Source: Naegleria gruberi
Lineage: Eukaryota
Length of the DNA: 64,000 bases
Assembly: GCA_000004985.1 (NCBI GenBank)
Contig: GG738856.1
Direction: 5' to 3' (one strand)
The translations under genes and the position numbers were made by a program. The notes below the pieces were generated by a model, which was not told where the DNA came from, did no database searches, and saw only the letters and a list, made by a program, of their open reading frames with translations. Each line of letters begins with the position of its first letter. Position 1 is the stretch's first letter. Shown one piece after another: positions 12,779-35,602 of the stretch.

Positions 12779-14149
12779 TTGAGCCACCCAAAACCTCCCA
12801 TCAAGCCACATCATCATCATCAGCTGCTTCAGCAAGAAACAGTAAAATTCGCCTCCAACACAATGATGATGATCACACAACAACAGCAACAACAACAACA
12901 ACCTTTCACTATTAATAACAATTATAACACAACTCCTAAAACAGTAGAAGAAGAAGCAATAAGAAGTAGAAGCAGAAGAAATATCGGTCAAATGTTGAAC
13001 AAGATAAAGAAGAGTCTATTCAAGAGATTTGGTACTCAGAGTCAAATCTATAATAACAACGACATTAACAATAATAATAATTCAACTTCAACAACTACAA
13101 TACGACATGTTGATAATACATGTAATGACAGAAGTTCGAGAATTTCATGGTCGTTGGTGATGGAAAATTCTCAAGCCGAATTCCTCTATCAAAATATCTT
13201 CTCGTGGCTTGATCATACAACGGTGATGAGACTTTCAATGGTAAATCGATACATGAGAGCAATTTGTGTAGAGTTTCATCCAGTGTGCTTTAGGATGGAA
13301 TGGTGGAATTTGACAGAATATAAAAAGACGAGTTGTGAATTCCCATTTGAAAAGGTGATTCGTGTACAGTTGGAAGGAGAACCAATGCTTGAATACATGC
13401 CAAGGATTAACTGGGAAAATGTTCAATCCTTGCGAATGAATGTTCACTATTATAAGAATGTCGACGAGTGTAGCAAGATTATTGGTCATGCCCTTGAAGA
13501 ATCCTCGCTGCTCCTGAGAGAATTAGTATTGAATGGAAAGCAACGTGAGATGAATGAGAGATTTACACTGACCAATGTACTGGACAAGGTTAATGTGAGA
13601 GGTTTGAAATTGGAGAGATTGACCACTAATCTTCCAGTAGATGTAAATAGACTCCTCCAATATGAAATGACCATCAATAAGATTATCATTGGAGAATACT
13701 TTTGTACAGACAGTCCTTCTGCTGCTTTCTCTATGAGTCAATCGACAAGTTCAGTTTGTTGTGGTTCAGCAACATCCTCTACAAGCATGATGAATGAAAT
13801 TGTACAATCTACTCCCACTGTAAATAGAACTAATCAATGCCTTATCAAAGTCTTTCGATGCAAAGTTACAGAGAAGAATCTGAAAGAATTTTGTGCATTA
13901 ATTGCCATGCCTCAATTCCAAACTCAAATTTTGGAAATTACACTCACACCAGCACTCATTGCTCCAGAAATTCTGTCCACACTCATTGATTTGTTTGTTG
14001 CCCACCTGAAACATGTAAAGAAAGTTGCCATTGCTAGTAGTCTTGATCCACTTTTACTCAAGAAGGTATTCGGATCCTTTCGAACAAATTCTAATACTTT
14101 TGAATTGGTTTTGGTTAAAAAACAAGACAAGCATCATAAAAAATGTTAA
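12779..14149 (+). CDS. polyQ / F-box-like hypothetical protein, member A of a 2-copy family in this window
   Basis: 456-aa ORF with a His/Gln-rich N-terminus and an F-box-like segment (FLYQNIFSWLDHTTVMRLSMVNRYMRAICVEF). A conserved block LRMNVHYYKNVDECSKIIGHALEES is shared with the 33989..35602 protein. The true start may lie upstream (overlapping ORF 12403..12915). Confidence 0.6.
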   Translation: MSHPKPPIKPHHHHQLLQQETVKFASNTMMMITQQQQQQQQPFTINNNYNTTPKTVEEEAIRSRSRRNIGQMLNKIKKSLFKRFGTQSQIYNNNDINNNNNSTSTTTIRHVDNTCNDRSSRISWSLVMENSQAEFLYQNIFSWLDHTTVMRLSMVNRYMRAICVEFHPVCFRMEWWNLTEYKKTSCEFPFEKVIRVQLEGEPMLEYMPRINWENVQSLRMNVHYYKNVDECSKIIGHALEESSLLLRELVLNGKQREMNERFTLTNVLDKVNVRGLKLERLTTNLPVDVNRLLQYEMTINKIIIGEYFCTDSPSAAFSMSQSTSSVCCGSATSSTSMMNEIVQSTPTVNRTNQCLIKVFRCKVTEKNLKEFCALIAMPQFQTQILEITLTPALIAPEILSTLIDLFVAHLKHVKKVAIASSLDPLLLKKVFGSFRTNSNTFELVLVKKQDKHHKKC

Positions 14150-14290
14150 ATTAATATTCAAAATTTATTCATTCTCATTATTGAAATTGATATCTTTTTA
14201 ATACTATTAAATACTACTTTACAATATTAAAAATTGAGCCCATTTTTGGTCATTTGCTAAACACATCCAAATTTAACACTTCAAAAAAAA

Positions 14291-14860
14291 ATGCTCGAAA
14301 GATACTTGAAATCCCTGCTGACAGGAAGCAAATTCAATCTACCAACAACCTTCTCTCAACTTTTCCGATCCCCTCATTTCGAAACCATGATGGGCATGGG
14401 TAATTTAGATTATGCTCATCCGGAGGTGAAACGAATTCTTCGTCATCACTCTCACGATCCAAAGACTTTCTTTGTATTCGAGCCTCCAATCGATGTCAGA
14501 GAACACGAGAAGAAATTCATCATTCATGCAGATGTTCCAGGCTTTCACAAGAATAATATTTCAGTGACGGTCACTGATGAAGAAAGAGGAGAAATTTGTA
14601 TTAAGGGAAATTTAGTAGATTTAGAGGAAAAACAAATGAAAGAGGAGGAACAAGTTTTTGGAAAGTATCTCATACAGGAAAGAGTTTTAGTTCCAGAATT
14701 TGAAAGGAAAGTAGTCTTGCATAATCCATCAGAAATTGATTGGGATAATATTAATGCTTCCATTGCTCATGGTCAACTCAATATTGATATTCCAAAGAAG
14801 GATGTTCCTTCCAAACCACCAAAGGAATCAAAAATTATTCCAATCTCTGAAGAACCTTAA
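14291..14860 (+). CDS. small heat-shock protein (HSP20/alpha-crystallin domain)
   Basis: 189-aa ORF containing FIIHADVPGFHKNNISVTV ... AHGQLNIDIPKK, the characteristic alpha-crystallin domain signature. Unspliced. Confidence 0.85.
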   Translation: MLERYLKSLLTGSKFNLPTTFSQLFRSPHFETMMGMGNLDYAHPEVKRILRHHSHDPKTFFVFEPPIDVREHEKKFIIHADVPGFHKNNISVTVTDEERGEICIKGNLVDLEEKQMKEEEQVFGKYLIQERVLVPEFERKVVLHNPSEIDWDNINASIAHGQLNIDIPKKDVPSKPPKESKIIPISEEP

Positions 14861-15311
14861 TTAAAAGTATGTGTAAATATATTTAAGAAACTTTGTTTGA
14901 TAGGTAACATAATAGGTTTGTGAAGTTGGCTGAACCAAGTTCATTGTTCTCTCATTTTTCATCTTTGAAAAAAACGAACTAAAATTTATTGTGGTTTTTT
15001 GTTGTTTAATATTGGATAGTGGACAACGAATTTTGATTTTCCTTGTAATTGTTGTGTTTGATTGGAAAACAAAAACGATAATAGGAGTTAATAGCGCACC
15101 TGTGTTGGATTTTTTGGTGCTTTTGATTCTTCTGTGATCATATTCGGATAAGAGGAAAATTATCATCATCAATTATTTAATTTAATTTATTATTATTAAA
15201 ATCTTAGAGTCGACTTGTAAAATTGTAGAATAACGACATTATCAAACACCTGTACTACTAGTTTAATTTATTATTATTATTGTAAAATACCTTTAAAAAT
15301 CTTCACGAATA

Positions 15312-16470
15312 ATGGATCAATATTAGTAAGTACAAGACATGATGATTGTGGATTTAATCAATGATGCGGATATTCAAACAACAGTATCATTAAAATCTTG
15401 GGAAGAGGTTCTGAAGGTAAGTGGCTTGGTGAAATGTTCATGTCACTAATCAATCAATAGGACAAGTATTGTTAGCAGAACACAAGAAAACTCATGAAGA
15501 AGTTGCCATCAAGCGTATGGAATGGGCTTCTTTCGACGATGCTAACCTTCATTTAAACGAAGCTCAAAAGTTGCGAGATTTAAATCACAAGAATATTATG
15601 AAATACCTCAAGGTATTCTTGAACAAGTATAGTACAGACACTCACTTTGTTTGTCTGTGTATAGAGTACTGCCCTGGAGGAGATTTACAACAATTCATTT
15701 CGAGTACATGCAAGAAGGGAAAAATAGCAGAGAAGGATATTCTCAGCTATGCAGAACAAATAGCAGCAGGTCTTCAATATTTACACGAGCACAATATTAT
15801 TCACAGAGATTTGAAACCTCAGAATATTTTAATTGCTGCAGGTAGGTCACAAACATTTTCAATTGATTTTACAAATATTATAAGATGGTACACTTAAAAT
15901 TGGAGATTTTGGAATTAGTAGACAATTGGGAACTCAATCTATGGCCAATACTCAATGTGGTACTATTCAATATATGAGCTATGAAATGCTTAACATGGCA
16001 CCTTATGATCAAGCAACTGACATGTACTCATTTGGAGTGTAAGTTGATTTTAAAAAGCTCATATATTTTTCTAACTATTATGGTCAACCATTTCATTGGA
16101 TAGAATTCTTCTTCAAATGATTACTGGAAAGCAAATGATGATTCCTATGGAACTGAGAAAGAATCCAAACTTTCTCGTTGAATTGGAACATCAATGTGTC
16201 AAGACATTGGGCTACTCTCAGGAATTATTTGCCCTAGCCAAAAATTTAGTGAGCTATGATCCAAGAGAACGGCCAACGGCAGAGAAGGTTCTCAAATCCC
16301 TGACAAAAATCAGATCGAGCGACAAGCATGGAAATTTGAAATTGGTATTTAAGGATTTTAACCAATTATCTGACGTTTTAAAAATTAGAGTATTTTCCTT
16401 TTTACAAATTGAAGACATGTATCATGTAGGTCTATCATGTAGACAATATTATTGGTTATGGGAACAACAT
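15312..16470 (+). CDS. Ser/Thr protein kinase (NEK-like) with a C-terminal F-box motif; exons 15312..15325, 15385..15416, 15461..15841, 15885..16038, 16104..16470
   Basis: Hand-built model. MDQYY|IIKILGRGSEG|QVLLAEHKKTHEEVAIKRM has the Gly-loop and VAIK. HRDLKPQNILIAA|DGTLKIGDFG and DMYSFGV|ILLQMITG follow. The introns are 59, 44, 43 and 65 nt with GTAAGT or GTAGGT donors and YAG acceptors. The last exon continues in frame into LSDVLKIRVFSFLQIEDMYHVGLSCRQYYWLWEQH, an F-box consensus. This exon ends at a canonical GTAAGT donor (16471). Confidence 0.75.
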
Positions 16471-16606
16471 GTAAGTTTTTTTCAATTCCTAACCTCCTCA
16501 TCAATTCATATTTTTTTGCATGTATTCAATTCAATATTTCCTTTAACTTTTTACCAAATTGGTAATAACTTGAATGCATACAACATTTACATTCAATTTT
16601 ACATAG

Positions 16607-17810
16607 TGGTGGAGCCAATTTATGAATACCAAAGCAGGAGAGGAGATTTTAAAGAATTCTTCCTCAATCTATTCCAAACCAACTCCAAGAAAACGAGCTG
16701 GGAGCGCCAACAATAATCACAGACCTGGTAGTGAGCTATCTCTAGAATCAATGACCACCAGTGCTGAGAAAGTTTCTTCTCCCCTATCCACATCACTCCC
16801 AACCACACAAACAGAAAAGAATATTTTCAAACAACAAGCATTCAACTATGTCAAAATCCAAAAACCTAAAAAGAGACGTGACATGAATAAGAGAGGTAAA
16901 AGTGTTGTCAGTGAAATACATCCATCACAAGTCCAAGAAGCAGCTACCTTCCTCATGAATTGTTTCAAATCTCCAAACTTTAACAAGTATTCCTCCACTA
17001 ACGATGCTGAAAATACAGCTCCAATTACATCTTCCAATTATGAATCAGGCCAAACATCCAAAACGTCCGAGCAAAGCAAACGAGACAGTGGCATTACTGC
17101 TGAAACCTCTACCACATCCACACTGATGGAAACTAACGAATTGCACCCACTCTTGAGTTACATTTTCAAAACTGGGATTATGGAAGATGTATCGGATGAA
17201 GCTCTTCTGTTCCTCTGTACCATGATCGTCAAGTACGGTATCAAATATGGTAGGATTTATGTCAGTACACACTATCCACTCAATAATGAATCAAAGGAGA
17301 TTCAAGCCATTTCCATATGGCAACATCCATTCAACTCAAAGGGAGTAGATTTGTGGAAATTAGTAAGACTGGGTATTGGGAAGGCTCCCAAAGCTCTGTA
17401 AGTATTTTTTTATGTAATGCTCATATTTGATTCATCATTATGATGATGGTTGTTGTTTGCTATTTAGTGGTTTCAAAGGTCTATATCGAGTCAACAAGGC
17501 TGCCAAAGCATTAGAAATGGTACATGGTAAGCTTCTTCCCCAAAACGATAAACCACATTGGACTCTTCTAAGTTTGGTTGTCAAACCAGAATTGAGACGC
17601 AGGGGCCTTGGCTCTGAAGTTATTCTACCAATCATTAGATTATCAGATGAAGCAACACTCCCCATCTATACATTTGTTTATCACTACGAGTCCAAAACAA
17701 AAGAAAATAAGCTCATCAATTTCCTTAAAAGGCAAGGTTTTGATGTTCGTGAAAACATTGCTCCAGCAAACGGCCCTCCTTTTACAGTTCTGATAAGGTA
17801 TGGCAATTAA
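16607..17810 (+). CDS. S/T-rich linker plus GNAT-family N-acetyltransferase-like domain (exons 16607..17397 and 17468..17810), probably the 3' part of the kinase/F-box gene
   Basis: Acceptor ACATAG|TGG at 16606 is in phase with the donor at 16470 (136-nt intron). A 70-nt GTAAGT..TATTTAG intron joins the two ORFs. The C-terminal HWTLLSLVVKPELRRRGLGSEVIL resembles GNAT acetyl-CoA-binding motif A (R/Q-x-x-G-x-G/A). Alternatively it is a separate gene starting at ATG 16622. Confidence 0.55.
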
Positions 17811-18340
17811 TAAAACAAAATTGTCAAATTCCATCTCAAGAGCATGAATTGACAAACATAGAACAGCTCAACAGGAAATTAGCACTGCTTAAAATCCACT
17901 ACCACCATTTTGAGTGCTGTAAATTGTTTGAACATTTTTGAACTCAGTTGTGGCCTCAAATTGTCAGATTCATTTCCTCGCAAAATATTGTGCATATTAT
18001 TAAGATGCATAACTCTAACACCTCAGCTTGTCTATTAATAATTATTTCACTGGATTGATCAACAATACGCAATATATTCAAAATGGTCTTGATAAAGTGG
18101 AAGCTCTTCTCCACACGCATGATCAAAAAGGTTTTCCCTTATTCATGCTCGATTTGTGGGATCCTCACACTTAATAAAACCACCAGAAAAAAAACCCAAT
18201 CACAGCCACCATCATCCTCTCTCTCCGTTTTTCCTTAAAAAATTACCGCAAAGAAGAGTTTGATTTTTCCAATTTACACCACCAACAAGCCTCATTATCC
18301 TCCTCTTCAATTATAATAATCTAAATACAACAACAACATC

Positions 18341-18745: not shown

Positions 18746-18994
18746 TAGTAATTAGCTGCCTCCATAGATTGGAAGAAATAACACACTATTGTGTTGCGCA
18801 CATTGAACATAATGACCATTAGTCTTATGGATCATCCTTAATAAATATTTAACCACCAACGCCAGGAATTTTCTACGTTACCGTAAATCTTTAGCCAGAT
18901 TGGAAATCTTGACCAAATCCTCATATCCATTCATAACAAACCATTCCTTATCCAGAGTGAAAAATTAGAGAACAAATGGATAAATGGAAATTTT

Positions 18995-21541
18995 TTATTG
19001 GTAGGTTGGTTGGGTGTAAAGTTGAATCAATTGTGCTTTGAGAGGATGATTGTGTGGATCGTGGGCAATGTGGAATAAAATGTGGTGGAATTGAGGGAGA
19101 TTTCTTGGGATTAACTTTAAAATATTGGAAAGGATTGGGTACAGGATATCAGGAGTCAATGTGTGATAATATGACATAAAGAAAGGAATAAATTGTTGGA
19201 TGAGAGTTTGATACCACATATTGAGTTGTACCATTTGCTGTTGTTGATATTTAGGAGAGAGTATGGTAATAGCTCTATTGAGCAAGGCGTTGAGGAATTC
19301 AATGGAGGAAGGTGGACTTCTCATTAATTGTACCAACACTAGTGTAATTGTACCAATATTGACTATCGAATTCAAGCTCTTAATCATGGATTCTACAAGT
19401 TGAGGATTGGTGGAATGTTCAGCAATCAAAATTGGAATCATATCAAGGAGCAACTTGGTATTGAAAGGTTGTGGAAGAATATTGAGACACTTGCAAATAA
19501 ATTTCTTTCCTTTTGGAATATTCCAAATTTCTTGGTGATATAAAAGATAGGAAGCAACAGTTTGACAATTAACATAAGAAGATTCAGCAACTTTTGGAGA
19601 AATTTCCTTAGAATGTTGAGCAACAGTTTGGAATTCTTCAATTTCAATCAAAAGAGTCAAACCATTCTCAATGCATGTTCTCAATTGAATTGGATTGTTA
19701 TAGACAAGTCTAGTACGTAACTCTGATGGTATTCTCTTATGTTTGTAATATTGGTCGACAACTTCATCACGGAATACATTAGTATCAAAGCATGTTCTTG
19801 GAGTTCTGACATTTTGAGATGGAATTCTACCAAATAATCTAGCAGGTGGTGTTGTTGTTGTTGTGGTGGTTGTAGAAGTATTATTGGTTCCTTGTTGTTG
19901 ATTAGATGTGGCTGTTTGTCTGGCATTTTCTCTTTCTTCCTCTTCTTCAGTTAGATGCTTGCTAAGAAGGTCAATAGTTTGTTCAGTATTGTTATTTTTC
20001 ACAAAGTAATAATAATCATCAGAGTATCCATTGTGTACTTGTAAATCTACCATTTGTTGACGAATAATAGTTTCCACTTCATCAATTCTCATAAATTGGA
20101 TAATTCTATGTGGTTTTTCATTGTTATTATTATTGTTGTTGTGAGATCTATTATTATTGTTAAATCTGTGGAACTTGTTTCTTTGATCTTGAGGTGTTGG
20201 AATCTTGTTCAAAACTTCATTAACTACAACCTTGTTAATAACATTGTAACAGTCAGTCTTATCTTCAGTATTATAAGTATTATATTTAACCATCAAATAG
20301 GAAGGTGTAGAAGTTTGTTGATTTGTTGTTGTTCCTCCTGATGTAGTATTGTTGGTAGTACTTGTTGTTGTTGGTGCTTGTTGCTTTTCTCCCTTTACTA
20401 ATTCGGGATGTTTGTGAGCAACAGTAGTTGGTAAAAATTCGAGAGGTTCCAAACCACCAGAGATTGGAATTCTTGAATTTGCTGCAATAGTAGCACTAAC
20501 TTCAGTATTGGTAAATCCAAAAGGTGAATTGGCACCACTTGATAATTGATGAGTACTAGATCTACCACTTCCACTGCTCTTATCATCTTCATCTTCCTCA
20601 GAAATCAAGTCTGTGATATAGTGAAGTCCTGTACTTTGTTTTGTAGAAGAACCAGAAGTTGTGTGGTGATGAGTGCCTACAGTTGATACACCTCCTGATG
20701 AACCACTACCGGAACCAGCAAAGAATGAACCAAGGAAGGCATCATCATTTTGATTATCATTAGCAGTACCCCACAAGGAAGCACTTCCATTATTACTTCC
20801 TTGACGAATGTGTTGTCCTCCACCAATAATTGATGATTGTGTAGCACCACTATTTGGACTGGCTCCCAAAATATTAGAAAGGAATGAACCAGAAGGTGAT
20901 GTAGCGGAAGGAGAACCTAACAAGATATTTGTTGCTCTTGGTGAAGAAATAACTGGTTGATGTGTAAAACTTCCAAAACTACCACTATTATTACTACCAA
21001 AACTACCAAAAGAACCAGTGTTTGTATGGTGATGAGAAGGTGTTCCACCAGGAATATAATTTGATGGTGAAGATGGTGAATGTCCAATAGGAATACCAAA
21101 ACCGCTACCAGTGCTACTTCCACTTGTATTTAAAGAAGAGTGAGCATTGTGAAAACCAGCAGCACTTCCTCCTGGAGAGCTAGTAGAGCCAAACAAGGAA
21201 TGTTGTTGTTGAGAATGTTGATAGTGGTGTTGTTGTGAATGTTGTGGGAGGCTTGATGTTGTATGGCTGGAAAAAGCCTTCTTTCCATTCCAATCATCAT
21301 CCACAGAATAGTATGGACGGGATCCACGAACAAGATCAGAAGCATCATTGTTAGAAATAAAAAAGCCTCCATCATCACCTTCATCACCAAAAGTTTCATC
21401 ATTTTTATCATCATCATACTCATTAACGGATAGTTTTTTAGCGAGACGATTATCCAAGTCATCGAACGAACCCTGTCCTAAATCATCATTCAACAAGGAA
21501 GGGTTGAAAAAGTCATTATCATCCTCACTTGGCGAAGACAT
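18995..21541 (-). CDS. PAT1-like protein (mRNA decapping/decay factor homologue) with a long low-complexity middle region
   Basis: 848-aa ORF. The acidic N-terminus contains KNDETFGDEGDDGGF, the conserved Pat1 N-terminal DETFG motif. The central portion is S/G/N/Q/H-rich and low-complexity. The C-terminal roughly 300 aa are predicted helical (Pat1 C-domain-like). Unspliced. Confidence 0.65.
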   Translation of the reverse strand: MSSPSEDDNDFFNPSLLNDDLGQGSFDDLDNRLAKKLSVNEYDDDKNDETFGDEGDDGGFFISNNDASDLVRGSRPYYSVDDDWNGKKAFSSHTTSSLPQHSQQHHYQHSQQQHSLFGSTSSPGGSAAGFHNAHSSLNTSGSSTGSGFGIPIGHSPSSPSNYIPGGTPSHHHTNTGSFGSFGSNNSGSFGSFTHQPVISSPRATNILLGSPSATSPSGSFLSNILGASPNSGATQSSIIGGGQHIRQGSNNGSASLWGTANDNQNDDAFLGSFFAGSGSGSSGGVSTVGTHHHTTSGSSTKQSTGLHYITDLISEEDEDDKSSGSGRSSTHQLSSGANSPFGFTNTEVSATIAANSRIPISGGLEPLEFLPTTVAHKHPELVKGEKQQAPTTTSTTNNTTSGGTTTNQQTSTPSYLMVKYNTYNTEDKTDCYNVINKVVVNEVLNKIPTPQDQRNKFHRFNNNNRSHNNNNNNNEKPHRIIQFMRIDEVETIIRQQMVDLQVHNGYSDDYYYFVKNNNTEQTIDLLSKHLTEEEEERENARQTATSNQQQGTNNTSTTTTTTTTPPARLFGRIPSQNVRTPRTCFDTNVFRDEVVDQYYKHKRIPSELRTRLVYNNPIQLRTCIENGLTLLIEIEEFQTVAQHSKEISPKVAESSYVNCQTVASYLLYHQEIWNIPKGKKFICKCLNILPQPFNTKLLLDMIPILIAEHSTNPQLVESMIKSLNSIVNIGTITLVLVQLMRSPPSSIEFLNALLNRAITILSPKYQQQQMVQLNMWYQTLIQQFIPFFMSYYHTLTPDILYPILSNILKLIPRNLPQFHHILFHIAHDPHNHPLKAQLIQLYTQPTYQ

Positions 21542-21717
21542 TTTTTTTAAATAATATTAAAAATTTTAAAATATTTTTAAATTCCTGATGATAATTCTTA
21601 TTTGGATTTTTAACAGTTGTTGTTGTTTGCTTTGGAACTTGAGCAGAATGTGAGAGTCGCATTTTGTAAATGAAGCTAGTCCATAGGATTGAATAATTAA
21701 TGAAAATAAATAATTAT

Positions 21718-25552: not shown

Positions 25553-27160
25553 TTAAAGAGTTGGATATTCTGCCTTATCATAACCATGAGGACGAGGAGG
25601 AATTAAGAATTGATTAACAGTTTGACTCATTTGAACAACTGGTTTCAGATATTTTACAGGTTGATAACTGAATGGAGTTTCTTCAAAACAACCAAGATGT
25701 TCCAATAAACGTGGAGCTCTCTTAATCATTCCCATCAATGACTTGGTTGCCAATGCAGCCATTGTATCAAAATGACGATATGGGACACCAAATTTCTCAT
25801 TCAATTCCTTCATCTCATCAGCTGAATATTCACCAAGATCTTGAACCCAATCATTGTACTTGGTCAGAGAGGTTGTTACATGATAGGATCCTCCTTGTTT
25901 GGATCTTCTCCAAAGACCATCGAGAGCACCACAAGTTCCCATCACTCCACAGCAATAGTCTGAGATTGGTAAGAGTGGCAAGACTGGTTCATCCAATCCT
26001 AAGGCCTTTCCTTGTTTCCAAGCAAGACCAGAGACACAATCAGCAATTTGTTGCCAACCAGATCTGTATGAAAGTGGACCATCATTTCCATAACAATTCT
26101 CAGAGACATAGACAATACCATAACCACGATCCTTTACCATCTCTGTTACTTGTTTGAATCCAAAACCTAATTTTTCCAAAGCTCCTGGTCTGTATCCTTG
26201 AACGAAAATATCACACTCCTTAATGAGCTCCCTCAGTTTTGATTTTCCTTCTTCAGTTTTCAAATCAATAAAACATGAATTTTGTCCAATATTATCCAAT
26301 TGGAATGCACTTCCATCAGGACTGTGTGGTCCAATAACTTTCAAAACTTGAGCTCCATATTCTGATAAATTACGACCAATGACAGGACCTGCAATAGCTC
26401 TCCCCAAACTCAAAACTTTAACACCATCAAGAATATTTCTTGTACCAGTAATTGGCTGAGGTTTTCCTTCTGAAATACTTTCAACTTCCCACAATGGCTT
26501 TGCATGAATGATTTGTCCGTGTTCACTTTCCAAAAATTCCTCTCTCGTCAAGCAAGTAACACCTGCTTGTTTGTATTGTTCATTTGAAACTTTCTCAATA
26601 TCAGAAGAGTTCCATTCCAATACCTTTTCTTGAATAAATGCAAATGCTTCAGCTGCATTGAGATTTTGATTATGTGGAATTCCCAACATGTCAAAAGTTG
26701 GTGTAGCATTCAAAGAACCATGCAAGTGATAGAATTTACCATCCTTACATTTGTAAATATTGGTACTTGCAAATCGATATTCATTACTGAATGTATCATG
26801 ATAATCAGTATTTGGTAAAATCTTCATAAGAGCTGGAGTGGCAGCAAACAGTACAGTATTCAAGTACATCAAGGCACGATCCAAATTGACTGTGACATTT
26901 TGCTCACCAAATCTTTCCTTACCAAGTAAATTTGCCAAACTTCCTTCAATTCCCTTCAGTACAGAAACTGCTTCTTGTTGTTTGACAGGACATGGAAGTA
27001 TTGGTTCCACAAGTCCAATACTTGATTCAAATTTGACCTTCTCCAAGAGTTCAACCACCTCTTGATCAATTCCAACTGGTAAATCCTTACCGATCGATTC
27101 AACAATTGTTTTAATAGTCTCTTCAAGTCTTGCCATTATAATAATACACAGATCACACAC
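25553..27160 (-). CDS. CoA-transferase family III (CaiB/BaiF-type) protein with a roughly 200-aa N-terminal extension
   Basis: GTRNILDGVKVLSLGRAIAGPVIGRNLSEYGAQVLKVIGP matches the family III signature (VLDLSRVLAGP...LGAEVIKVE). The probable start is the second Met (MARLEE, 27136). Confidence 0.8.
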   Translation of the reverse strand: MCDLCIIIMARLEETIKTIVESIGKDLPVGIDQEVVELLEKVKFESSIGLVEPILPCPVKQQEAVSVLKGIEGSLANLLGKERFGEQNVTVNLDRALMYLNTVLFAATPALMKILPNTDYHDTFSNEYRFASTNIYKCKDGKFYHLHGSLNATPTFDMLGIPHNQNLNAAEAFAFIQEKVLEWNSSDIEKVSNEQYKQAGVTCLTREEFLESEHGQIIHAKPLWEVESISEGKPQPITGTRNILDGVKVLSLGRAIAGPVIGRNLSEYGAQVLKVIGPHSPDGSAFQLDNIGQNSCFIDLKTEEGKSKLRELIKECDIFVQGYRPGALEKLGFGFKQVTEMVKDRGYGIVYVSENCYGNDGPLSYRSGWQQIADCVSGLAWKQGKALGLDEPVLPLLPISDYCCGVMGTCGALDGLWRRSKQGGSYHVTTSLTKYNDWVQDLGEYSADEMKELNEKFGVPYRHFDTMAALATKSLMGMIKRAPRLLEHLGCFEETPFSYQPVKYLKPVVQMSQTVNQFLIPPRPHGYDKAEYPTL

Positions 27161-27649
27161 AACAATTATTCAACTCAAAAAGCCAATGATGACAATTAAT
27201 GTTAATTTTTTTTTAATTCATTTCCCGACGACGCACAGTTAAACCTTTTTAAATCAATTACCGCCTCATCAAAAGAAATGGAAATATAACGCTTTTGCTG
27301 ATCAATATGATGACGATGATTGGAACTGAATGGTTTTGATAATATGTGCTGGTAGTAGCATTGTAAGGCGTAGCCTGCTTTAAATAATTTTCATTTTTTT
27401 TGTAAGCGGGATTGAACGCAGCGGTAAAGACTTTCCCGCCAAGCCCGAAATTGTGCTATTTGCTGATTTTGAGTGGGAACCCGAAAATGTTAGATTGATC
27501 CGAAGCCCAGTTGGTATTTTGAATAATTAGAAGGAAGGTTGTGACAAATTTTCAAAATAAAAACAATCAAATTGATCTCTGTAAAGTGTTTGATCAGTTT
27601 TTGAAGAGTATTTGTAAAATTGTAAAGTAATTGTGAAGAATTTGAGAAA
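27161..27649. promoter_or_regulatory. shared divergent intergenic region (putative bidirectional promoter) between the CoA-transferase and AtuA-like genes
   Basis: 489-bp AT-rich spacer between two head-to-head start codons. No motif was identified, so this is inferred from arrangement only. Confidence 0.3.
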
Positions 27650-29455
27650 ATGAAGAGACCTCTAAATATTGCAGCTTGTTCTGGAGTAACTGGTGACAAT
27701 CCGAATGCAATTTATGATCAAGCAGTTGGTGATCATCCAATCGATGTCATTATTGGTGATTATTTGGCTGAGGTTAATATTGCATGGCATGCATTGGCTA
27801 GAAAAACAGATCCATCCAAAGGATACGATGAGGGTTTCGTTGAGAATTTGAAACCAGCATTGCCAGTTTTAAAGGAGAAAGGTATCAAGGTTGTTGTGAA
27901 TGCTGGGGCCTTGAATCCTTCAGGTTTAGTCCAAGAATTGAGAAAGGTCTTGAATGAGCAAAAGATTGAAATGAATATTGCTTGGATTGAAGGTGATGAC
28001 ATTGTAAGAAAGATTCCTGAATTAATTGAAACTGGAAATGAGTTTATTCACTTGGATAATCCAAATGTCAAGTTATCCGAATGGAGATGCACTCCAATTT
28101 CTGCAAATGCTTATTTGGGTGCTTGGGGAATTGCCAAAGCATTGAATGAAGGAGCAGACATTGTCATTTGTCCAAGAGTTACTGATGCTTCACTTGTGGT
28201 TGGATGTGGTATTTGGTGGCATGATTGGAAAAAAGATCAATTTGACATTTTGGCAGGTGCTGTCATGACAGGACATTTAATTGAATGCAGTGCTTATATT
28301 ACAGGAGGAAATTATGCAGGTTTTAGAAATGTCAAGAATAATGTCGATTTACCATTTCCAATTGTTGAACTAGCTCATGATGGCAGTTGTGTCATTACAA
28401 AACATTCAAACACAAATGGTGAAATCTCACTTGGAACTGTCACTACCCAATTCCTATATGAAATTCAAGGACCTATCTATTTAAACCCTGATGTAACCTG
28501 TCATCTCAGTACTGCTCAAATTACAGAAATTGCTCCTGACAGAGTTGCATTGACAGGTATTAAGGGAAGTGCTCCATCCAAGCAAACTAAAGTTGCCATC
28601 TGTGGAATTGGTGGCTATCAAGTTGAATTCTCTGTTTACATGACAAGTCCAAACGTCCAAGAAAAGGAAGATCATTTCAGAAAGCAAATGATGAGGATGG
28701 TCAACCCAGAAAAATTCCTAGTTCTTGATGTGACCAGATATGGAGGACAAGTTCAAGATCCAAAATCTCAAGCAGAGGCAACTTGTCAAATTCGTGTTTT
28801 TGCTCAAGCTATTGATGCCGAAACAGTTTCGTTTAAGAATTTCACTGGACGAATCTTGTCAACTGGAATGCAAGGATTTGGAGGTTTCCACTTGAATATG
28901 GATTTCAGAACTGCTCAACCAAAACCTTTCATTGAATATTATCCAGCACTTCTTGATGTATCCTCTCTAGAACACACAGTTTTTGTAAACGACAAGGAAT
29001 TCATTGTAAACGATTTGGAAATTCCAAGACAAGAAATTTCCTGCTCAGTCAACCAACTTCCAACTCTCGAATTTGACCCTTCTAAATATCCAGAAACAAT
29101 CAGGGCTCCACTAGGAAGAGTAGCCCTTGCTCGTTCTGGAGATAAAGGAGGAAACATGAATGTTGGAATCTATGTCCTTCATGACCAAGCATGGCCATGG
29201 CTTAAATCCTTCCTCAACGAGGAAACTTTTAGAAAATTGCTTGGAAATGATAATTCTCCCGACTATATTATCGAAAGATGTGAATTTGAAAATTTGAGAG
29301 CTGTTCACTTTAAAGTGATTGGAATTTTGGGAAAGGGAGTTTCAAGTACTGCAAGAATGGATTCATTCGCCAAATCTTGGGGTGAGTTTTTGAGAGCTCG
29401 ACATGTGGACATTCCATTGGAAATTTATGAAAATTGCAGTGTAGATTTATTGTAA
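27650..29455 (+). CDS. AtuA-like protein (DUF1446 N-domain plus DUF4387-type C-domain; acyclic terpene utilisation family)
   Basis: The N-terminus MKRPLNIAACSGVTGDNPNAIYDQAVGDHPIDVIIGDYLAEVNIAWHALARKTDPSKGYDEGFV fits the DUF1446/AtuA N-terminal consensus. The length (601 aa) is typical of the family. Unspliced. Confidence 0.7.
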   Translation: MKRPLNIAACSGVTGDNPNAIYDQAVGDHPIDVIIGDYLAEVNIAWHALARKTDPSKGYDEGFVENLKPALPVLKEKGIKVVVNAGALNPSGLVQELRKVLNEQKIEMNIAWIEGDDIVRKIPELIETGNEFIHLDNPNVKLSEWRCTPISANAYLGAWGIAKALNEGADIVICPRVTDASLVVGCGIWWHDWKKDQFDILAGAVMTGHLIECSAYITGGNYAGFRNVKNNVDLPFPIVELAHDGSCVITKHSNTNGEISLGTVTTQFLYEIQGPIYLNPDVTCHLSTAQITEIAPDRVALTGIKGSAPSKQTKVAICGIGGYQVEFSVYMTSPNVQEKEDHFRKQMMRMVNPEKFLVLDVTRYGGQVQDPKSQAEATCQIRVFAQAIDAETVSFKNFTGRILSTGMQGFGGFHLNMDFRTAQPKPFIEYYPALLDVSSLEHTVFVNDKEFIVNDLEIPRQEISCSVNQLPTLEFDPSKYPETIRAPLGRVALARSGDKGGNMNVGIYVLHDQAWPWLKSFLNEETFRKLLGNDNSPDYIIERCEFENLRAVHFKVIGILGKGVSSTARMDSFAKSWGEFLRARHVDIPLEIYENCSVDLL

Positions 29456-29485
29456 ACGTAACAAGTTTCGATTCGAACTTTAAAA

Positions 29486-30415
29486 ATGTTGGAAAAAATG
29501 CAACAAGAAGAAGAAAAATCAAAGAATTGTTTTGCTCTCTTTTCTGATCATGATGAAACAATTTGTTCTACCAAGCCGAGTCCACAATTAGCACCTCCCG
29601 ATCATCAATTTTTCAATAAATTTGGGAAAATCAAGATGGTTGTATGTCGAGTAAATAATTGTTTTGTAGTTTCGGAACACGATGAAGTATTTGTTGGTAG
29701 TAAGAGCGGGTGGCAACGATTGGGAACAAGTTTTAAATTTACCAATGAGAAAATAGTGCATATCAGTGCAAGTTATCATATTCTTGTTATGATTTTACAA
29801 TCTGGCAATACTACAAATATTGGGACAAGAGTATTTTGGTGTTTTATTAATACTAATGGAGGTGGTAATAAATTTGGAGAGACAATTACTGAATGTACAG
29901 AGTTGGTGGATCATTTCTCCAATAAGGAAGGACCTCAAACTACTACTTGGTATCATTTGCAAGATTTTGAATTGATGGATGGGGAATATGTTAATTATAC
30001 TTCATGTGCTGCATATGCCTGTACATTTATTACATCCCATGGAAGACTTTTTGCATGTGGTAGTAATCAATTTGGTGAAATAGCTCAACCAACAATTAGT
30101 TTTAGAACAAGTAATGTTATTTGCAAAGTTAATCTTTGTAATCTTGATCCTTTGAATGAATGTAAAAATCCATTCTTTGTCAAATCAGTGAATGGGGATC
30201 ACAATATTATTGCCTTGACAAAGGATCATAATATTTTCTATTGTGGATATCAAATGGAAGCTGGAGGTAAAGATCTACCAATGATGAGACAATTGAAACG
30301 ACATGACACAATGGAACCTTATGAATACAGGAATATCAAGAAAAAAGACGAGTTCAAGCACTGTTTTATGCCATGCAAGGGCTTGTGGAGCAACGATTTG
30401 GAATGGAATCTTTGA
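29486..30415 (+). CDS. RCC1-like repeat (beta-propeller) protein
   Basis: Repeats of the form hhxxxxxhhxxxSxGxxxxCGxNxFGEI (VVCRVNNCFVVSEHDEVFVGS; YACTFITSHGRLFACGSNQFGEIAQ; HNIIALTKDHNIFYCGYQ). The 3' end overlaps the next ORF in another frame. Confidence 0.55.
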   Translation: MLEKMQQEEEKSKNCFALFSDHDETICSTKPSPQLAPPDHQFFNKFGKIKMVVCRVNNCFVVSEHDEVFVGSKSGWQRLGTSFKFTNEKIVHISASYHILVMILQSGNTTNIGTRVFWCFINTNGGGNKFGETITECTELVDHFSNKEGPQTTTWYHLQDFELMDGEYVNYTSCAAYACTFITSHGRLFACGSNQFGEIAQPTISFRTSNVICKVNLCNLDPLNECKNPFFVKSVNGDHNIIALTKDHNIFYCGYQMEAGGKDLPMMRQLKRHDTMEPYEYRNIKKKDEFKHCFMPCKGLWSNDLEWNL

Positions 30416-31512
30416 GGTCAATTGAGAAATGCCGAGAATTGCTCTCGAAAAATTTTGACAATTTCACAAATTATACAGTGGCTTGCACTTATAAATTACT
30501 GAGTCGATATGAAATGGGATATGGAAGGGTTAATTATTCGAGATTCTATCTGAATTGTGTCAAGTCCTATTTTGATGGAAATGAGCCAAAGAATTCATTT
30601 GAGAGGAATATGAAACAATTGATTAGAACAGCTGAAATTGTGGACTCACATAATGAGATGGGTCATTTATTTGTCAAGAATTTGCCAGAAATATTTGAAG
30701 CAATTACCAATCTTCCATTACCAGATGAAATTATTAAGGTATTGCAGCAAGACTCCGTCAACTCAACTAATTATTTGGATCAAATGAAAATTATTGAAAT
30801 AATTGTAAATCACACTGTCCAATTCTCTAAAGAAAAGACAAATTCCTATAAGACAGAAGAACAGAGAAAGTTTATTGACAACTATCTTGAGAATTTCAAA
30901 TCCATCTTTTTGAATGGTTTGAGCATTTCAATGCTTATGCGCTCTGGACAGGGAAATGAACTAATTGAAGAAGCTGCTTTGAAAGTTACCTATTCATCAG
31001 AGACTGAATACTTTCCCTTGCTTCCTATATTTGTTCTGCCATATGTTGCTTTGGCCAGTCGTTTCCATTTACAAATAGTGAAACAGATCGAAAATGGGCA
31101 AACACAACAGGAAAGCAAGAAGAATCCAACAAGTGTAGATTATTACGAAATTCTAGCCAAAGATTTACTAGCTTTGAGAGTGCTTGCAAAGAGATACAAA
31201 CGAGTTGAATTTTCTTATGGAACCATGATGAATGAAATGGACGAAATTTTAAAGAAGAAAGTTGAACAATCATCTCAACAGAATGTGGAATTCAGCACAA
31301 CTTCTGACGTGGCCACGCCACAAACTACTCACGTGGAGAGTTCTTGTCTAATTGATGAACAGCCACTTTCCTTTTTATTGGGATTTGTTAATGAGGCAGC
31401 TCAACACTCACAACCATTCGAAAGTTCAAACCAACACATTGCAGAAAATCCATTCCACTTTCTTTCTGAGGATTTTTCACAAATGCTCTCTCCCGATTTT
31501 TCATTCTTTTAG
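30373..31512 (+). CDS. hypothetical protein (possibly the continuation of the RCC1-like gene after a frameshift)
   Basis: 379-aa ORF with no recognised domain. Both frames are open across 30325..30415, and no GT..AG intron of the right phase restores continuity. The start could be a downstream ATG (30403). Confidence 0.45.
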   Translation: MQGLVEQRFGMESLRSIEKCRELLSKNFDNFTNYTVACTYKLLSRYEMGYGRVNYSRFYLNCVKSYFDGNEPKNSFERNMKQLIRTAEIVDSHNEMGHLFVKNLPEIFEAITNLPLPDEIIKVLQQDSVNSTNYLDQMKIIEIIVNHTVQFSKEKTNSYKTEEQRKFIDNYLENFKSIFLNGLSISMLMRSGQGNELIEEAALKVTYSSETEYFPLLPIFVLPYVALASRFHLQIVKQIENGQTQQESKKNPTSVDYYEILAKDLLALRVLAKRYKRVEFSYGTMMNEMDEILKKKVEQSSQQNVEFSTTSDVATPQTTHVESSCLIDEQPLSFLLGFVNEAAQHSQPFESSNQHIAENPFHFLSEDFSQMLSPDFSFF

Positions 31513-31539
31513 TTTTCACACAAATATATTTGAGTTTAT

Positions 31540-32466
31540 TTAGAATAATGAGAAAATAATCATGGCAACCATCAGGACAAAACCACCCAAACTCAATCCT
31601 GAAGCTCCACTAGTAGAACGATCTTTAGTCAAGGTTGTCAAAAGAGTTCCAAAGATATTCTCAGCTGTAATTGTAATACTGAAAGATTCAGCAGTAGTAG
31701 AAACAGGGAATGTAAAAATAGTTGAGCCAGAGTAGATGTTTAAAGTTGAAACAGTTGCAGAATAGGAAGCACTCTTAGCAGTTACAGTAATGGTAGAACC
31801 AGAATAGATCCACAACTTTCCATCATTTCCGTACAATTCAACCAAAACTTTCAACTTTCCATCTTGGAAATAACTTGTTGCATTAATATTATTCAATCCA
31901 ATATAACAAGTTCCAGTATACTTGTACTTGGTTGTGCAAGTAGTAGCATTAGCAACTGAAGATTCACATCTGTAAGTGGTAATGACATTTGGAGAATTGA
32001 AAATAGTTCCAGAAGCACTCAAACAATTGGTGGTTAAAGGACTTGGAGAAATTGGAACAGCAGTATTACCAGCATCAAACTTTCTGAATTCAGCTTCTTT
32101 GAAGTAGTATATTCTGTACATTTCTTTAGTATTGTCAGAACCCAAGTTGATAGAATTGGAGGCAAAGTTTCTGGAATCCAAACATGTAGTGTTAAACTTG
32201 TAGAATTGTTGGTTGACATCTGTGAAAGTGGTACAACCAGAACAAGCACAATCAAGGGAAGCTCTTGGAGCAGCGATGGATTTGAAATTGTTGTTGGATG
32301 GGAGGATGAATGATTTGGCTGAATCCATGGTTGACCTAACGAGAGGAGATGATTCTTCGTAGGTTGAACCCATTGGACCACCTAAACCTTTTTCAATGGA
32401 AATGGTGGAGCTTTGGACAAGTTGACACAAGACCAAGATGAGAGCGATAGCAATAATTGATTTCAT
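31540..32466 (-). CDS. S/T-rich cell-surface protein with signal peptide and GPI-anchor-like C-terminus
   Basis: MKSIIAIALILVLCQLVQSST signal peptide, a Cys/Ser/Thr/Asn-rich body, and a C-terminal ...SGASGLSLGGFVLMVAMIIFSLF hydrophobic tail after a small-residue omega region. Confidence 0.6.
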   Translation of the reverse strand: MKSIIAIALILVLCQLVQSSTISIEKGLGGPMGSTYEESSPLVRSTMDSAKSFILPSNNNFKSIAAPRASLDCACSGCTTFTDVNQQFYKFNTTCLDSRNFASNSINLGSDNTKEMYRIYYFKEAEFRKFDAGNTAVPISPSPLTTNCLSASGTIFNSPNVITTYRCESSVANATTCTTKYKYTGTCYIGLNNINATSYFQDGKLKVLVELYGNDGKLWIYSGSTITVTAKSASYSATVSTLNIYSGSTIFTFPVSTTAESFSITITAENIFGTLLTTLTKDRSTSGASGLSLGGFVLMVAMIIFSLF

Positions 32467-32880
32467 TTTGTTTTTTTCAATGGACTGTCCAGAGGCATGG
32501 TTGCGTTGTGAATTTAAATGTTTTTCACACTGTTACACTGCTTTATTGATGGGCTTCAAAATACATTTACTTTAGTCCAACACATGCCCTCTCATGGAAA
32601 GGGAATTTATTTTTTTCAAGTGAAAACCAATGAAATAGAGAGTTTACAACAGTTGAGTGAACATTTCTGTCTGAATATGGAAATTGGTTTTATCCAAAGG
32701 GCGAGGGTTCCATGATTTTAATTGGTTGCTGAAGAAGATTATGAACATTTTCCCTGTTTTTCAGTTGACTATTTGTTCAAACTTCAAGAGTTGTTGGAAA
32801 CCAAATGCCAACGCCCACAACTTTTTAAAGTGCATTCCTTAAACGGTAAGTGTCGTATTAACAAAAATTTTGTAAATAAT

Positions 32881-33798
32881 TTAATATTTATCTTTCAGGT
32901 CACGTACAGTTTGCAAGATTTTAACACTTGACCAAGTCTTTAAATCATCCTCAGTGGCAGAACCATCTTTAATCATCTTATCAAAGAATTCTCTTCTTGT
33001 TTCAAAAGATTCCAAGAGGGCTGCTTTAAAGTATGGATTGTACTCTTTCTCATCTTGCCATGTGGAAGGAACAGTTCCATGAGATTCCTCCATCAAGTTC
33101 TTATACTTGTTCAAATATTTTCTACTTGTTTCTGTATCAGAAATCTTATCCACAATGAATTGCATATTCTTGAGTGTATATTCATGACCACAACACAATA
33201 GCATTCTCTCTGGATCTTTAATTTCCTTATTCAATTTTACAATATTATCAAACATTTGTTGAGCAGTTCCTTCAAAGAATTTTCCACATCCTCCCACAAA
33301 GAATGTATCTCCACAGAATAAACAATCGAAATTGCCTCCCTCTTCATCTGATGTTCTGACAAGATAACAAACATGTCCATTGGTATGACATGGAGTGTGA
33401 TAAGCCTGAACCACAGTCTTATCATCAAAGATTGTAAATGACTCCAAATCACTCTTCAATTCTTGATTGACTCCTTCACATTCTCCATTTCCAACAACTT
33501 GTACTTTTTCCAATGATGAAAATTCCTTCCAATTCTTTACAAAATACAAATTACCTCCGGCATGATCCCAATGTTTATGAGTCGTCAGAATAGTAGAAAG
33601 ACTCTTTTGATTGAATAATGATTGTCCCTCATTGCTATTCAAATATTGATGAATCTTTTTAGAATCGGAAGGATCAACCATTGCATATTGATTAGTATGA
33701 TGATTGATCAGAAAATAACAATAATTATCGGAGAGGATTGGTAGAATATGCAGTGAGAGTTTGCGACTGAGAGGAATGGTGCGTGTATGGATGGACAT
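32881..33798 (-). CDS. hydroxyacylglutathione hydrolase (glyoxalase II, metallo-beta-lactamase fold)
   Basis: ILPILSDNYCYFLINH...AMVDP, THKHWDHAGGN (HxHxDH metal site), GHTNGHVCY, and CCGHEYT. 305 aa including a C-terminal extension. Confidence 0.85.
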   Translation of the reverse strand: MSIHTRTIPLSRKLSLHILPILSDNYCYFLINHHTNQYAMVDPSDSKKIHQYLNSNEGQSLFNQKSLSTILTTHKHWDHAGGNLYFVKNWKEFSSLEKVQVVGNGECEGVNQELKSDLESFTIFDDKTVVQAYHTPCHTNGHVCYLVRTSDEEGGNFDCLFCGDTFFVGGCGKFFEGTAQQMFDNIVKLNKEIKDPERMLLCCGHEYTLKNMQFIVDKISDTETSRKYLNKYKNLMEESHGTVPSTWQDEKEYNPYFKAALLESFETRREFFDKMIKDGSATEDDLKTWSSVKILQTVRDLKDKY

Positions 33799-33988
33799 TT
33801 TTTTTTTAATTTGAAAATTTAATAAATTTCAATCTTTGAGTGCGTATTAATTTATTTGGAAAGTTTACAATTTTGTAAAGAGAATTGGAATATTTTTTAA
33901 TGAGCGCGTGCGTACGCATCTGGATGAATATTTGCTCTTGTTGAATTGAGGGGATTGGCTTGGAAATGAATGAAAAAATTCAAATTTA

Positions 33989-35602
33989 CTATGGAAGTAT
34001 TTTCAAATAAGGAAAGTAAGGTTTACACTTTTTGAATTTCAAATCTAGTAAGGTACAATTATCTTTGAGGAATTGGGATTCATTCTTTCGTTTGTTAATT
34101 TTCTGCAATCGATCAAAATTAAACTTGCTAGCACCTATTATATTATCCGATTCTAAACTATTCGTTCTCCTGTAAAATAGAATATTTGAAAGTTGCAGCT
34201 TGTTGGAATTGGTAAACTCATACTTGGCTATTGTGAAAATTTTCTCATTCTCGCAGACAACACATAATAATTCCATTTTTGGAAGTCTCTTCAATATTTC
34301 AATGAATTCAGAAAGCTCACTTTCATTCTCTATTGAAACACTAATTGAGAATATTCTAGAATTGAACCAACATGACTCGAATTCAGAGAATTTGATACAA
34401 ATCGGATCTTTGATCACTATTTCAGTTTGTTGTAAGGTAGTTTGTGAGTTCAGTAGTTTGAATAAACTGACACCATCAACAGATTGATGAAATATTACAG
34501 TTTTGATCATTTTTTGATTAACTTGTTCTATAATTCTAGATAGGAATGGAAGAACAGATGCATTTCCTTGAATTTCCAATTGTTTCACTTTAAACTTTTC
34601 ATGATTGACTAATTTTTCAAACTTGTGCAAATTATATGAAGTTAATTGACATTTAAACAAGTTCAAACAAACATCATCATGAACCTTCTTCCACTTGATA
34701 CTGAAAATTGATCCAACAATCAAATTTTCCACTCTGAAATATTTCAATAAAACATGCATCCTTATTGGAATTAAACATGTTATTGTTGGAATTGGGATTC
34801 CTTTCCTTTTTTTCATCATGTGGATGATATTTGGTAAATTGAGTGATGTATTCTCATTCAGATTGAAAGTATTTTCAATTTGCAAATGTTTCATTTTGGT
34901 AAATTGTTGTTGATTTTCAATATTTTCAAGAAAATGTTCCAAAATTTTGCTCATCTCGCTAACATTACTATAATAATGAACATTGAATGCCAAACTTCTC
35001 AAATGTTTGAAACTTTCAATGGTGGGAATTTGATAAAACTTTGGATTTCCAATTATGGAAAATTTCACAACCTTCTTGAATGGCAAAGAGCTCTTAATTT
35101 TTTCCACCAGAACATTCCCACTCCCCACAACATACACTGAAAAGTTCTCATCATGAACTTGATCCACACTCTCACTACCCTCCACATCTTCACTCAAATT
35201 TAACACAGCATGATTTGCATTCCTCTTACATGCCACATCCACATGAAGAATGTTTTCATCCAAATGACTATCATACTTGATGTGTATTGGTAAATAACAA
35301 CAGCAAATTTGTCGAAAGTATCGACAGACATGACTAAGGCAATTCATCACTTCATCATGACAAAACCACTTGAACACATTTTCATAGACAAAATCTGGAT
35401 GAAACTGTTCCAACAAGATGTAATACTCCATCAATTTCTGCCTATTCTGCTGTTGCTGCTGCTGATGATGATGTTGATGTGTAAGTGTTGTTGTTGCTGA
35501 ATTGGATTGTCTTCTCCGAAAGGGTTTCATAAATCGTGTTTCCTCTCCATCTTCATTACAGACAATCCATCCCATGCAAGAAGTCAATGTTTCCTTCATC
35601 AT
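33989..35602 (-). CDS. polyQ / F-box-like hypothetical protein, member B of the 2-copy family
   Basis: 537 aa: HQHHHQQQQQQNRQ, the F-box-like FVYENVFKWFCHDEVMNCLSHVCRYFRQICCCYLP, and the block LRSLAFNVHYYSNVSEMSKILEHFLENIEN paralogous to 12779..14149. Confidence 0.65.
   Translation of the reverse strand: MMKETLTSCMGWIVCNEDGEETRFMKPFRRRQSNSATTTLTHQHHHQQQQQQNRQKLMEYYILLEQFHPDFVYENVFKWFCHDEVMNCLSHVCRYFRQICCCYLPIHIKYDSHLDENILHVDVACKRNANHAVLNLSEDVEGSESVDQVHDENFSVYVVGSGNVLVEKIKSSLPFKKVVKFSIIGNPKFYQIPTIESFKHLRSLAFNVHYYSNVSEMSKILEHFLENIENQQQFTKMKHLQIENTFNLNENTSLNLPNIIHMMKKRKGIPIPTITCLIPIRMHVLLKYFRVENLIVGSIFSIKWKKVHDDVCLNLFKCQLTSYNLHKFEKLVNHEKFKVKQLEIQGNASVLPFLSRIIEQVNQKMIKTVIFHQSVDGVSLFKLLNSQTTLQQTEIVIKDPICIKFSEFESCWFNSRIFSISVSIENESELSEFIEILKRLPKMELLCVVCENEKIFTIAKYEFTNSNKLQLSNILFYRRTNSLESDNIIGASKFNFDRLQKINKRKNESQFLKDNCTLLDLKFKKCKPYFPYLKILP

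Follow-up and report, generated by a model that had tools for sequence, protein, structure and literature searches.

Two genes near a Naegleria gruberi scaffold end belong to a three-member family of putative divergent F-box/leucine-rich-repeat proteins

Two genes, A and B, lie near one end of a Naegleria gruberi scaffold, in a stretch of 64,000 nucleotides from contig GG738856.1 that was analysed as a whole (the window). The original prediction took them for paralogues carrying an F-box-like motif and viewed them, together with several F-box genes nearby, as a subtelomeric expansion of substrate adaptors. We asked whether the two genes are related, what kind of protein they encode, and whether their position reflects such an expansion. 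The window is a scaffold terminus, closing with about 75 TTTGGG repeats; it holds roughly 35 genes, and the GC content of the genome is 33%.

12863..14149, + strand: gene A (NAEGRDRAFT_78985, XP_002679765), intronless coding sequence, 428 aa
33989..35602, - strand: gene B (NAEGRDRAFT_65126, XP_002679907), intronless coding sequence, 537 aa
63552..63999, + strand: telomere-type array, 74.7 copies of TTTGGG, at the window terminus

Both open reading frames are present where they had been placed, and the B protein matches N. gruberi XP_002679907 at 100% identity. The start of A shifts from the TTG at 12779, which made the mechanical reading frame too long, most probably to the ATG at 12863 used in the NCBI model. 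A metagenome allele (L001), 98% identical to A, has a 1-bp indel at 12796, upstream of this ATG, that breaks the 'HHHH' frame; therefore A carries a Q9 run only and no His/Gln-rich N-terminus. The sole indel inside the A coding sequence keeps the frame. In this one allele pair A is under purifying selection: pN/pS is 0.23 over the gene, and the structured part shows 5 synonymous and 0 non-synonymous changes (pN/pS 0; P=4e-4).

A and B are indeed paralogues of an uncharacterised family, with similarity that extends beyond polyQ. BLASTP aligned 374 aa at 23% identity (E=2e-20; A 117-433, B 53-386, all outside polyQ), and tblastn with SEG masking gave E=5e-17. Among 1.84 billion representative proteins scanned exhaustively with HMMER there was one additional member, C (NAEGRDRAFT_66277), on a different N. 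gruberi scaffold of 507 kb, and there were no relatives in other species, so that the family numbers three. Pairwise phmmer scores among the members were 58-80 bits, and identities were 23% for A-B, 25% for A-C and 23% for B-C. The paralogues are ancient and the family is N. gruberi-specific. Word-indexed homologue searches with A, B and a 5-sequence profile returned their own clusters only. We also scanned IMG/VR viral contigs and JGI metagenomes, where no relatives were found, and a giant-virus or environmental-relative connection was rejected as far as detectable. C lacks polyQ altogether, so polyQ/His does not characterise the family. Of the domain order that had been ascribed to A and B, F-box-like helices followed by the NVHYYKNVDECSKI/NVHYYSNVSEMSKI block were confirmed.

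13175..13270, + strand: F-box-like helices of A, AEFLYQNIFSWLDHTTVMRLSMVNRYMRAICV; sub-threshold in Pfam, in register by hhalign
35303..35401, - strand: F-box-like helices of B, HPDFVYENVFKWFCHDEVMNCLSHVCRYFRQIC; sub-threshold in Pfam (F-box, 10.9 bits, E=0.49), in register by hhalign

Each of the three proteins had an F-box model as its best Pfam match, at an equivalent position and in register. The F-box/F-box-like scores were 16.4/16.6 bits for A and 18.9/12.2 bits for C (E-values of 0.007-0.009 and 0.0015), which, like that of B, are below the gathering cut-offs of 20.5 bits (PF00646) and 24.3 bits (PF12937). We then aligned the family profile by hhalign with 13 canonical F-boxes, a set entered by hand and not taken from a curated file, and obtained P=9e-6 and a probability of 83% over 32 aligned columns. 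The alignment was in register from the Leu-Pro (LP) position to the VCxxW helix (H1-H3), and its score of 26.9 compares with a mean of 8.7, a standard deviation of 1.7 and a maximum of 14.4 in 300 column shuffles. The F-box-like assignment of A and B was thus upheld at the profile-profile level. In an AF2 model of B, this region forms three short predicted helices (H69-75, H82-91 and H94-103; pLDDT 46-66).

13340..14113, + strand: C-terminal LRR-like solenoid region of A, from the alignment to B and C; fold inferred from the B model
13439..13480, + strand: conserved block NVHYYKNVDECSKI of A, inside the C-terminal LRR-like region
34163..35086, - strand: predicted LRR-type alpha/beta solenoid of B, aa 173-480, from the AF2 model
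34943..34984, - strand: NVHYYSNVSEMSKI block of B, predicted second repeat (strand, loop and helix start)

The remainder of the proteins had been described as free of any known domain, and sequence searches bear this out. Pfam LRR models gave no match at E<=10 in A, B or C, and a PDB sequence search with the whole-family profile returned chance matches only, with nothing for the C-terminal region. The predicted fold, on the other hand, is a leucine-rich-repeat (LRR) solenoid. When modelled with the family alignment, B adopted a curved alpha/beta solenoid with a parallel beta-sheet and about 12 strand/helix repeats, at moderate confidence (mean pLDDT 56.8, 60-82 over aa 171-400; pTM 0.54); the single-sequence model, at pLDDT 41, was too poor for use. 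Foldseek matches of the B model were weak (E-values >=1e-3, TM 0.2-0.36), and the predicted repeats are irregular, with a strand-to-strand spacing of 20-42 residues. The invariant columns F316 C318 T321 N324 L325 F328 L331 ... L342 E343 fit the pattern FxCxxTxxNLxxFxxL, which resembles cysteine-containing FBXL repeats. Seven LxxLxLxx(N/C) matches in B fall on 7 consecutive predicted strands; however, the loose LxxLxLxxN expression was no more frequent than in shuffles (10 matches, against 8.9 +/- 2.6). The C-terminal region of A also contains a Ser/Thr-rich low-complexity insert.

A predicted LRR solenoid after an F-box gives the classical F-box+LRR architecture, and we consider it fairly probable that A, B and C form a small, lineage-restricted family of divergent, putative FBXL-type SCF substrate receptors. 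Each protein would begin with a disordered low-complexity part, continue with a divergent F-box and end in a degenerate solenoid of leucine-rich repeats, in which the NVHYY..S.I block would form the second repeat. Within an SCF (Skp1-Cul1-Rbx1) ubiquitin ligase, the F-box helices would attach to Skp1, and the concave face of the solenoid would bind a substrate, which may then be ubiquitinated. The order of an F-box-like three-helix motif and then an LRR-type solenoid is common to FBXL proteins such as SKP2, FBXL2, FBXL3, FBXL17 and plant TIR1/COI1. Unlike these, A, B and C reach no Pfam F-box or LRR threshold, have mostly lost the LP of the F-box and carry repeats that are predicted to be irregular; a sequence relationship to any FBXL protein was not detectable. 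The three would thus be proteins of a common type whose sequences are unusual, and they do not attest to a recent expansion at a chromosome end. If true, three unannotated N. gruberi 'predicted proteins' would gain a candidate function as SCF substrate receptors. They would also illustrate how F-box/LRR adaptors can diverge so far that domain databases no longer detect them, which bears on counts of ubiquitin-ligase adaptors in deep-branching eukaryotes. The general picture is unchanged, as F-box+LRR adaptors are ubiquitous and this family is tiny.

Alternatively, the proteins could be LRR-like solenoids of F-box descent, acting outside SCF ligases, for example as scaffolds or binding proteins, in which the F-box has degenerated and Skp1 recruitment has been lost. 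The sub-threshold Pfam scores in all three members and the low model confidence in the F-box helices are in line with this, as is the state of the Leu-Pro position, which contacts Skp1 in canonical F-boxes and reads QA in A, SS in C and HP in B, the proline being kept in B only. However, several functional F-boxes, e.g. those of TIR1 and FBXL3, deviate from an exact LP. Moreover, few parts of the family are better conserved than the F-box region, in which eight residues are invariant across A, B and C (F71, N75, V85, M86, L89, S90, V92 and R97), and it carries 0 non-synonymous changes between the A alleles, indicating that the region is constrained. We therefore regard a loss of Skp1 recruitment as unlikely.

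The locus had been credited with at least five F-box-type genes, viewed as consistent with a subtelomeric expansion.

2856..4883, - strand: F-box + RI-type LRR_6 protein, 675 aa; F-box at 4731..4838
10549..11739, - strand: F-box-like + LRR_6 gene, split by an assembly gap at 11129..11330
15469..16716, + strand: protein kinase gene with at least two exons, Pkinase E=5.5e-29
16381..16452, + strand: weak F-box-like stretch after the kinase domain, 13.5 bits, E=0.065

The gene at 2856..4883 encodes a bona fide F-box, which passes Pfam at 22.6 bits (cut-off 20.5), with LRR_6 at E=5.9e-37. Of the other four, A, B and 10549..11739 (18.3/17.4 bits) are sub-threshold, and the stretch in the kinase gene is weak, reaching E=4e-4 with a home-made F-box HMM over 270 window ORFs. 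The F-boxes of 10549..11739 and 2856..4883 match each other at E=2e-5, and these two genes are related. Like A and B, they combine an N-terminal F-box with a C-terminal LRR in the same neighbourhood, but their regular 28-residue RI-type repeats (LRR_6 E=1e-21 to 1e-37) differ from those of A, B and C. When A, B and C were compared with 2856..4883 by hhalign, the sole match was one F-box helix in the same register (E=0.23), with nothing in the repeat region; on this basis we rejected an origin of A and B as divergent copies from the local F-box/LRR_6 family. The F-box-type genes in the window thus form at least three classes (the A/B family, LRR_6 and a kinase fusion) that are unrelated outside the F-box, and do not make up one expanding family.

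The location does favour an expansion. Two of the three members, A and B, lie about 49 kb and 28 kb from the TTTGGG array, and 4-5 of the roughly 35 window genes have F-box-type motifs, a share that would exceed the 0.3-3% typical of eukaryotic proteomes. Against it, 16 kb of the distance to the telomere is an N-gap of estimated size. The divergence pattern leaves the idea unsupported: A and B are no closer to each other than either is to C, which lies on another scaffold, and since all three are about equally distant (23-25% identity), A and B did not arise by recent duplication, whether local or subtelomeric. Their flanking genes differ, the window holds no further copy, and the family stops at three members. 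A recent subtelomeric expansion is thus quite unlikely; searches of the literature for subtelomeres of Naegleria or for its number of F-box genes returned nothing. The fast-evolving plant FBX/FBD-LRR and nematode FBA/FTH families, with tens to hundreds of tandem duplicates and signs of positive selection, are likewise lineage-restricted within a narrow taxon and have highly divergent substrate-binding domains. A, B and C differ from them in being three old, dispersed members, with purifying selection in the one allele pair.

A resemblance to F-boxes by chance, in an orphan family whose N-terminal helical motif is its own and whose function is unrelated, strikes us as very doubtful. It would fit the lack of detectable relatives among the 1.84 billion representative proteins, and a PDB search with the F-box-region profile yielded only ferritin, at a chance-level E of about 2. 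However, a control search with the Pfam-passing F-box of 2856..4883 likewise yielded no F-box protein, so the PDB negatives carry no weight. Against coincidence, three paralogues match F-box models in register, 0 of 300 shuffles scored above 14.4 where 26.9 was observed (P of about 1e-5), and the motif precedes an LRR-type fold as in the classical architecture.

Innate-immunity roles have been proposed for the F-box expansions of nematodes and plants. By analogy, A, B and C could be fast-evolving Naegleria-specific SCF receptors near chromosome ends that target non-self proteins, which we consider highly improbable; candidate targets may be effector proteins from Legionella, chlamydial symbionts or Naegleria giant viruses. 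Such a role, if true, would be a case of F-box/LRR proteins serving innate immunity in an amoeba. Finally, that the reading frames are decaying pseudogenes or annotation artefacts of a repeat-rich chromosome end, as the failure to find homologues outside N. gruberi might suggest, is scarcely credible for long, intact frames of 428-537 aa in a genome of this GC content, with the same blocks conserved in three paralogues, all five changes in the structured region of A synonymous and only an in-frame indel in its coding sequence.

Homology, F-box profile similarity, a predicted leucine-rich repeat (LRR) fold and selective constraint together favour, as the best-supported reading, that three Naegleria gruberi genes (A, B and C) encode FBXL-type substrate receptors of SCF ubiquitin ligases, in which the F-box would dock Skp1 and the solenoid would capture the substrate, as is established for F-box proteins. 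Two of them lie in the window and the third on another scaffold:

A: 12863..14149 (+), NAEGRDRAFT_78985, XP_002679765, 428 aa
B: 33989..35602 (-), NAEGRDRAFT_65126, XP_002679907, 537 aa
C: NAEGRDRAFT_66277, XP_002678572, 481 aa, on a different 507-kb scaffold

Both window ORFs translated as originally described, and pairwise BLASTP confirmed that A and B are paralogues (E=2e-20, 23% identity over 374 aligned positions; A 117-433 / B 53-386), with the alignment lying wholly outside the Q-runs. The match was also recovered by tblastn with low-complexity masking (E=5e-17), which identified no further A/B copy in the window. The conserved block was likewise found in the two proteins (NVHYYKNVDECSKI / NVHYYSNVSEMSKI). 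At 100% identity, B matched an N. gruberi 'predicted protein' on a 602-kb scaffold.

The start codon of A and the His/polyQ N-terminus ascribed to the pair needed correction. The ORF first proposed for A (12779..14149) opens with TTG, while the NCBI model XP_002679765 starts at the ATG at 12863. Moreover, a metagenome contig 98.2% identical to this region (L001) carries a 6-bp deletion at 12755-12760 and a 1-bp indel at 12796, the latter disrupting the frame of the 'HHHH' stretch upstream of the ATG, indicating that this stretch is not coding; the His-rich stretch at 12779-12862 is probably 5' UTR. C lacks polyQ, so polyQ is not a family trait.

To delimit the family, an exhaustive HMMER scan of 1.84 billion representative proteins was performed with an A+B profile (E<=0.001), and only three clusters were returned: B, A and, at E=2e-27, C. 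Word-indexed searches yielded nothing beyond these three and near-identical copies, and no relatives were identified in the viral contigs and JGI metagenomes scanned. Pairwise identities (A-B 23%, A-C 25%, B-C 23%) and scores were similar, indicating that the three are old, roughly equidistant paralogues; B and C share a C-terminal extension that A lacks. A and B are no closer to each other than either is to C, which rules out a recent local duplication, and they have no flanking genes in common. With three members and restricted to one species, the family represents a strongly diverged form of a protein architecture that is itself very well known.

We then examined the F-box. The best Pfam matches of A, B and C were F-box models at a homologous position, all below the gathering scores (A 16.4-16.6, B 10.9 and C 18.9 bits; lowest E-value 0.0015). 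The canonical Leu-Pro is only partly kept (A, Q-A; B, H-P; C, S-S), and an F-box that has degenerated and no longer binds Skp1 is the first rival to the receptor reading. A second rival is that the F-box resemblance arose by chance. A PDB sequence-profile search with the family motif retrieved no F-box proteins, but neither did a control search with the window's Pfam-passing F-box, so this negative carries no meaning. Using hhalign, we compared the motif with a reference profile of 13 canonical F-boxes, a hand-assembled rather than curated set, which is a caveat, and obtained P=9e-6 and a probability of 83%, with an in-register alignment spanning the 'LP' position to helix 3. The score was 26.9; shuffling the columns of the family alignment 300 times gave a mean of 8.7 (sd 1.7, maximum 14.4), and the reversed alignment gave 11.2. 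When the family was compared with the neighbouring bona fide F-box/LRR protein, the sole hhalign match fell in the same F-box register. These comparisons indicate that the motif is a divergent F-box.

In the C-terminal region, no domain was identified by any sequence method. AlphaFold2 gave a pLDDT of 41 for B alone, and a pTM of 0.54 with pLDDT 60-82 over residues 171-400 when a five-row family alignment was supplied. The model of B contains about 12 alternating strand/helix units, and seven LxxLxLxx[NCT]-type motifs, whose count alone is not above chance, fall on seven consecutive predicted strands. Within this model, the conserved block covers the end of a strand, a loop and the beginning of a helix in the second repeat, and it lies in the region of highest confidence. 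The invariant family columns read FxCxxTxxNLxxFxxL...LE, resembling cysteine-containing FBXL repeats. From the predicted repeats and these FBXL-like columns, the modelled architecture is read as classical F-box+LRR, its repeats having degenerated too far for sequence models to recognise.

Near-identical copies of A and C were present in one ENA metagenome sample (ERZ929261; contigs k127_186306 and k127_128843, L001 and L002). One contig matches window 12685-14977 at 98.2% DNA identity and carries A and the adjoining HSP20 gene in the same order, and the other holds the copy of C; for B, the sample yielded no counterpart. The contigs come from a close relative of this strain. Between A and its 98%-identical allele, pN/pS was 0.23, with all 9.5 non-synonymous changes and the single 9-bp in-frame indel in low-complexity segments. 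In the structured part (F-box and repeats, 306 codons) there were 5 synonymous changes and no non-synonymous one (binomial P=4e-4), which argues for A being a constrained, functional protein and against the last rival, that the family consists of pseudogenes.

It had also been noted that at least five F-box-type genes lie within 35 kb, which was taken to fit a subtelomeric expansion. Five candidates were indeed found within 1-35.6 kb, A and B included, but only one is certain, three are probable and one is possible, and they belong to three unrelated families. The other three are:

2856..4883: F-box+LRR_6 gene, passing the Pfam F-box model
10549..11739: F-box-like+LRR_6 gene, broken by the gap at 11129-11330; F-box matches that of 2856..4883 at E=2e-5
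16096-16716: C-lobe ORF of a kinase gene, also bearing a weakly F-box-like stretch (13.5 bits, E=0.065; E=4e-4 with a small home-made HMM among 270 ORFs)

A recent local expansion of the A/B/C family was ruled out by the divergence pattern. We infer that an F-box share of 4-5 of about 35 window genes looks high compared with other eukaryotes. The remaining genes are varied (P450, Ras, G-alpha, CoA-transferase, AtuA, RCC1-like, glyoxalase II, ankyrin, FAD oxidase, NHL and HSP20); GC content is about 33% and ORFs are mostly intronless.

The predicted proximity of a chromosome end was supported by a TTTGGG-type hexamer array at the scaffold terminus (63552-63999; 74.7 copies, 97% matches), indicating that the window is a chromosome or scaffold end; a few GGGCCT variants occur close to the terminus. 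The hexamer may be the N. gruberi telomere repeat; telomeres in this species were described as entirely unknown in a 2013 survey (PMC3622300). The array lies about 28 kb from B and 49 kb from A, distances that are only estimates since about 16 kb of them is the estimated size of the last two of four N-gaps (11129-11330, 42504-42952, 45642-49534 and 51438-63089).

Other features of the window were as follows. Same-strand ORFs across 15469-17810, which include the kinase C-lobe, may belong to a single multi-exon gene or to two genes. No Pfam family was matched at E<=0.01 by five long ORFs (305-848 aa); in the longest (848 aa), a long N-terminal half of low complexity, rich in Ser/Gly/Asn, precedes an ordered C-terminal half.

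15469-15897: kinase N-lobe
16622-17401: Ser/Thr-rich ORF
17427-17810: GNAT acetyltransferase domain (PF00583, E=6e-5)
18995-21541, 36136-37782, 30373-31512, 31540-32466 and 379-1467: long ORFs without a Pfam family
38640-40541: FAD-binding oxidase; its domain of cytokinin-dehydrogenase type matches PF09265 (E=7e-9)
8694-9404: DUF4116-repeat protein (E=5e-21)

At 25553-29455, a CoA-transferase family III gene (-) divergently adjoins AtuA (acyclic terpene utilisation; E=2.5e-157). Both families are mainly bacterial, and the two genes may therefore be an acquired metabolic pair.
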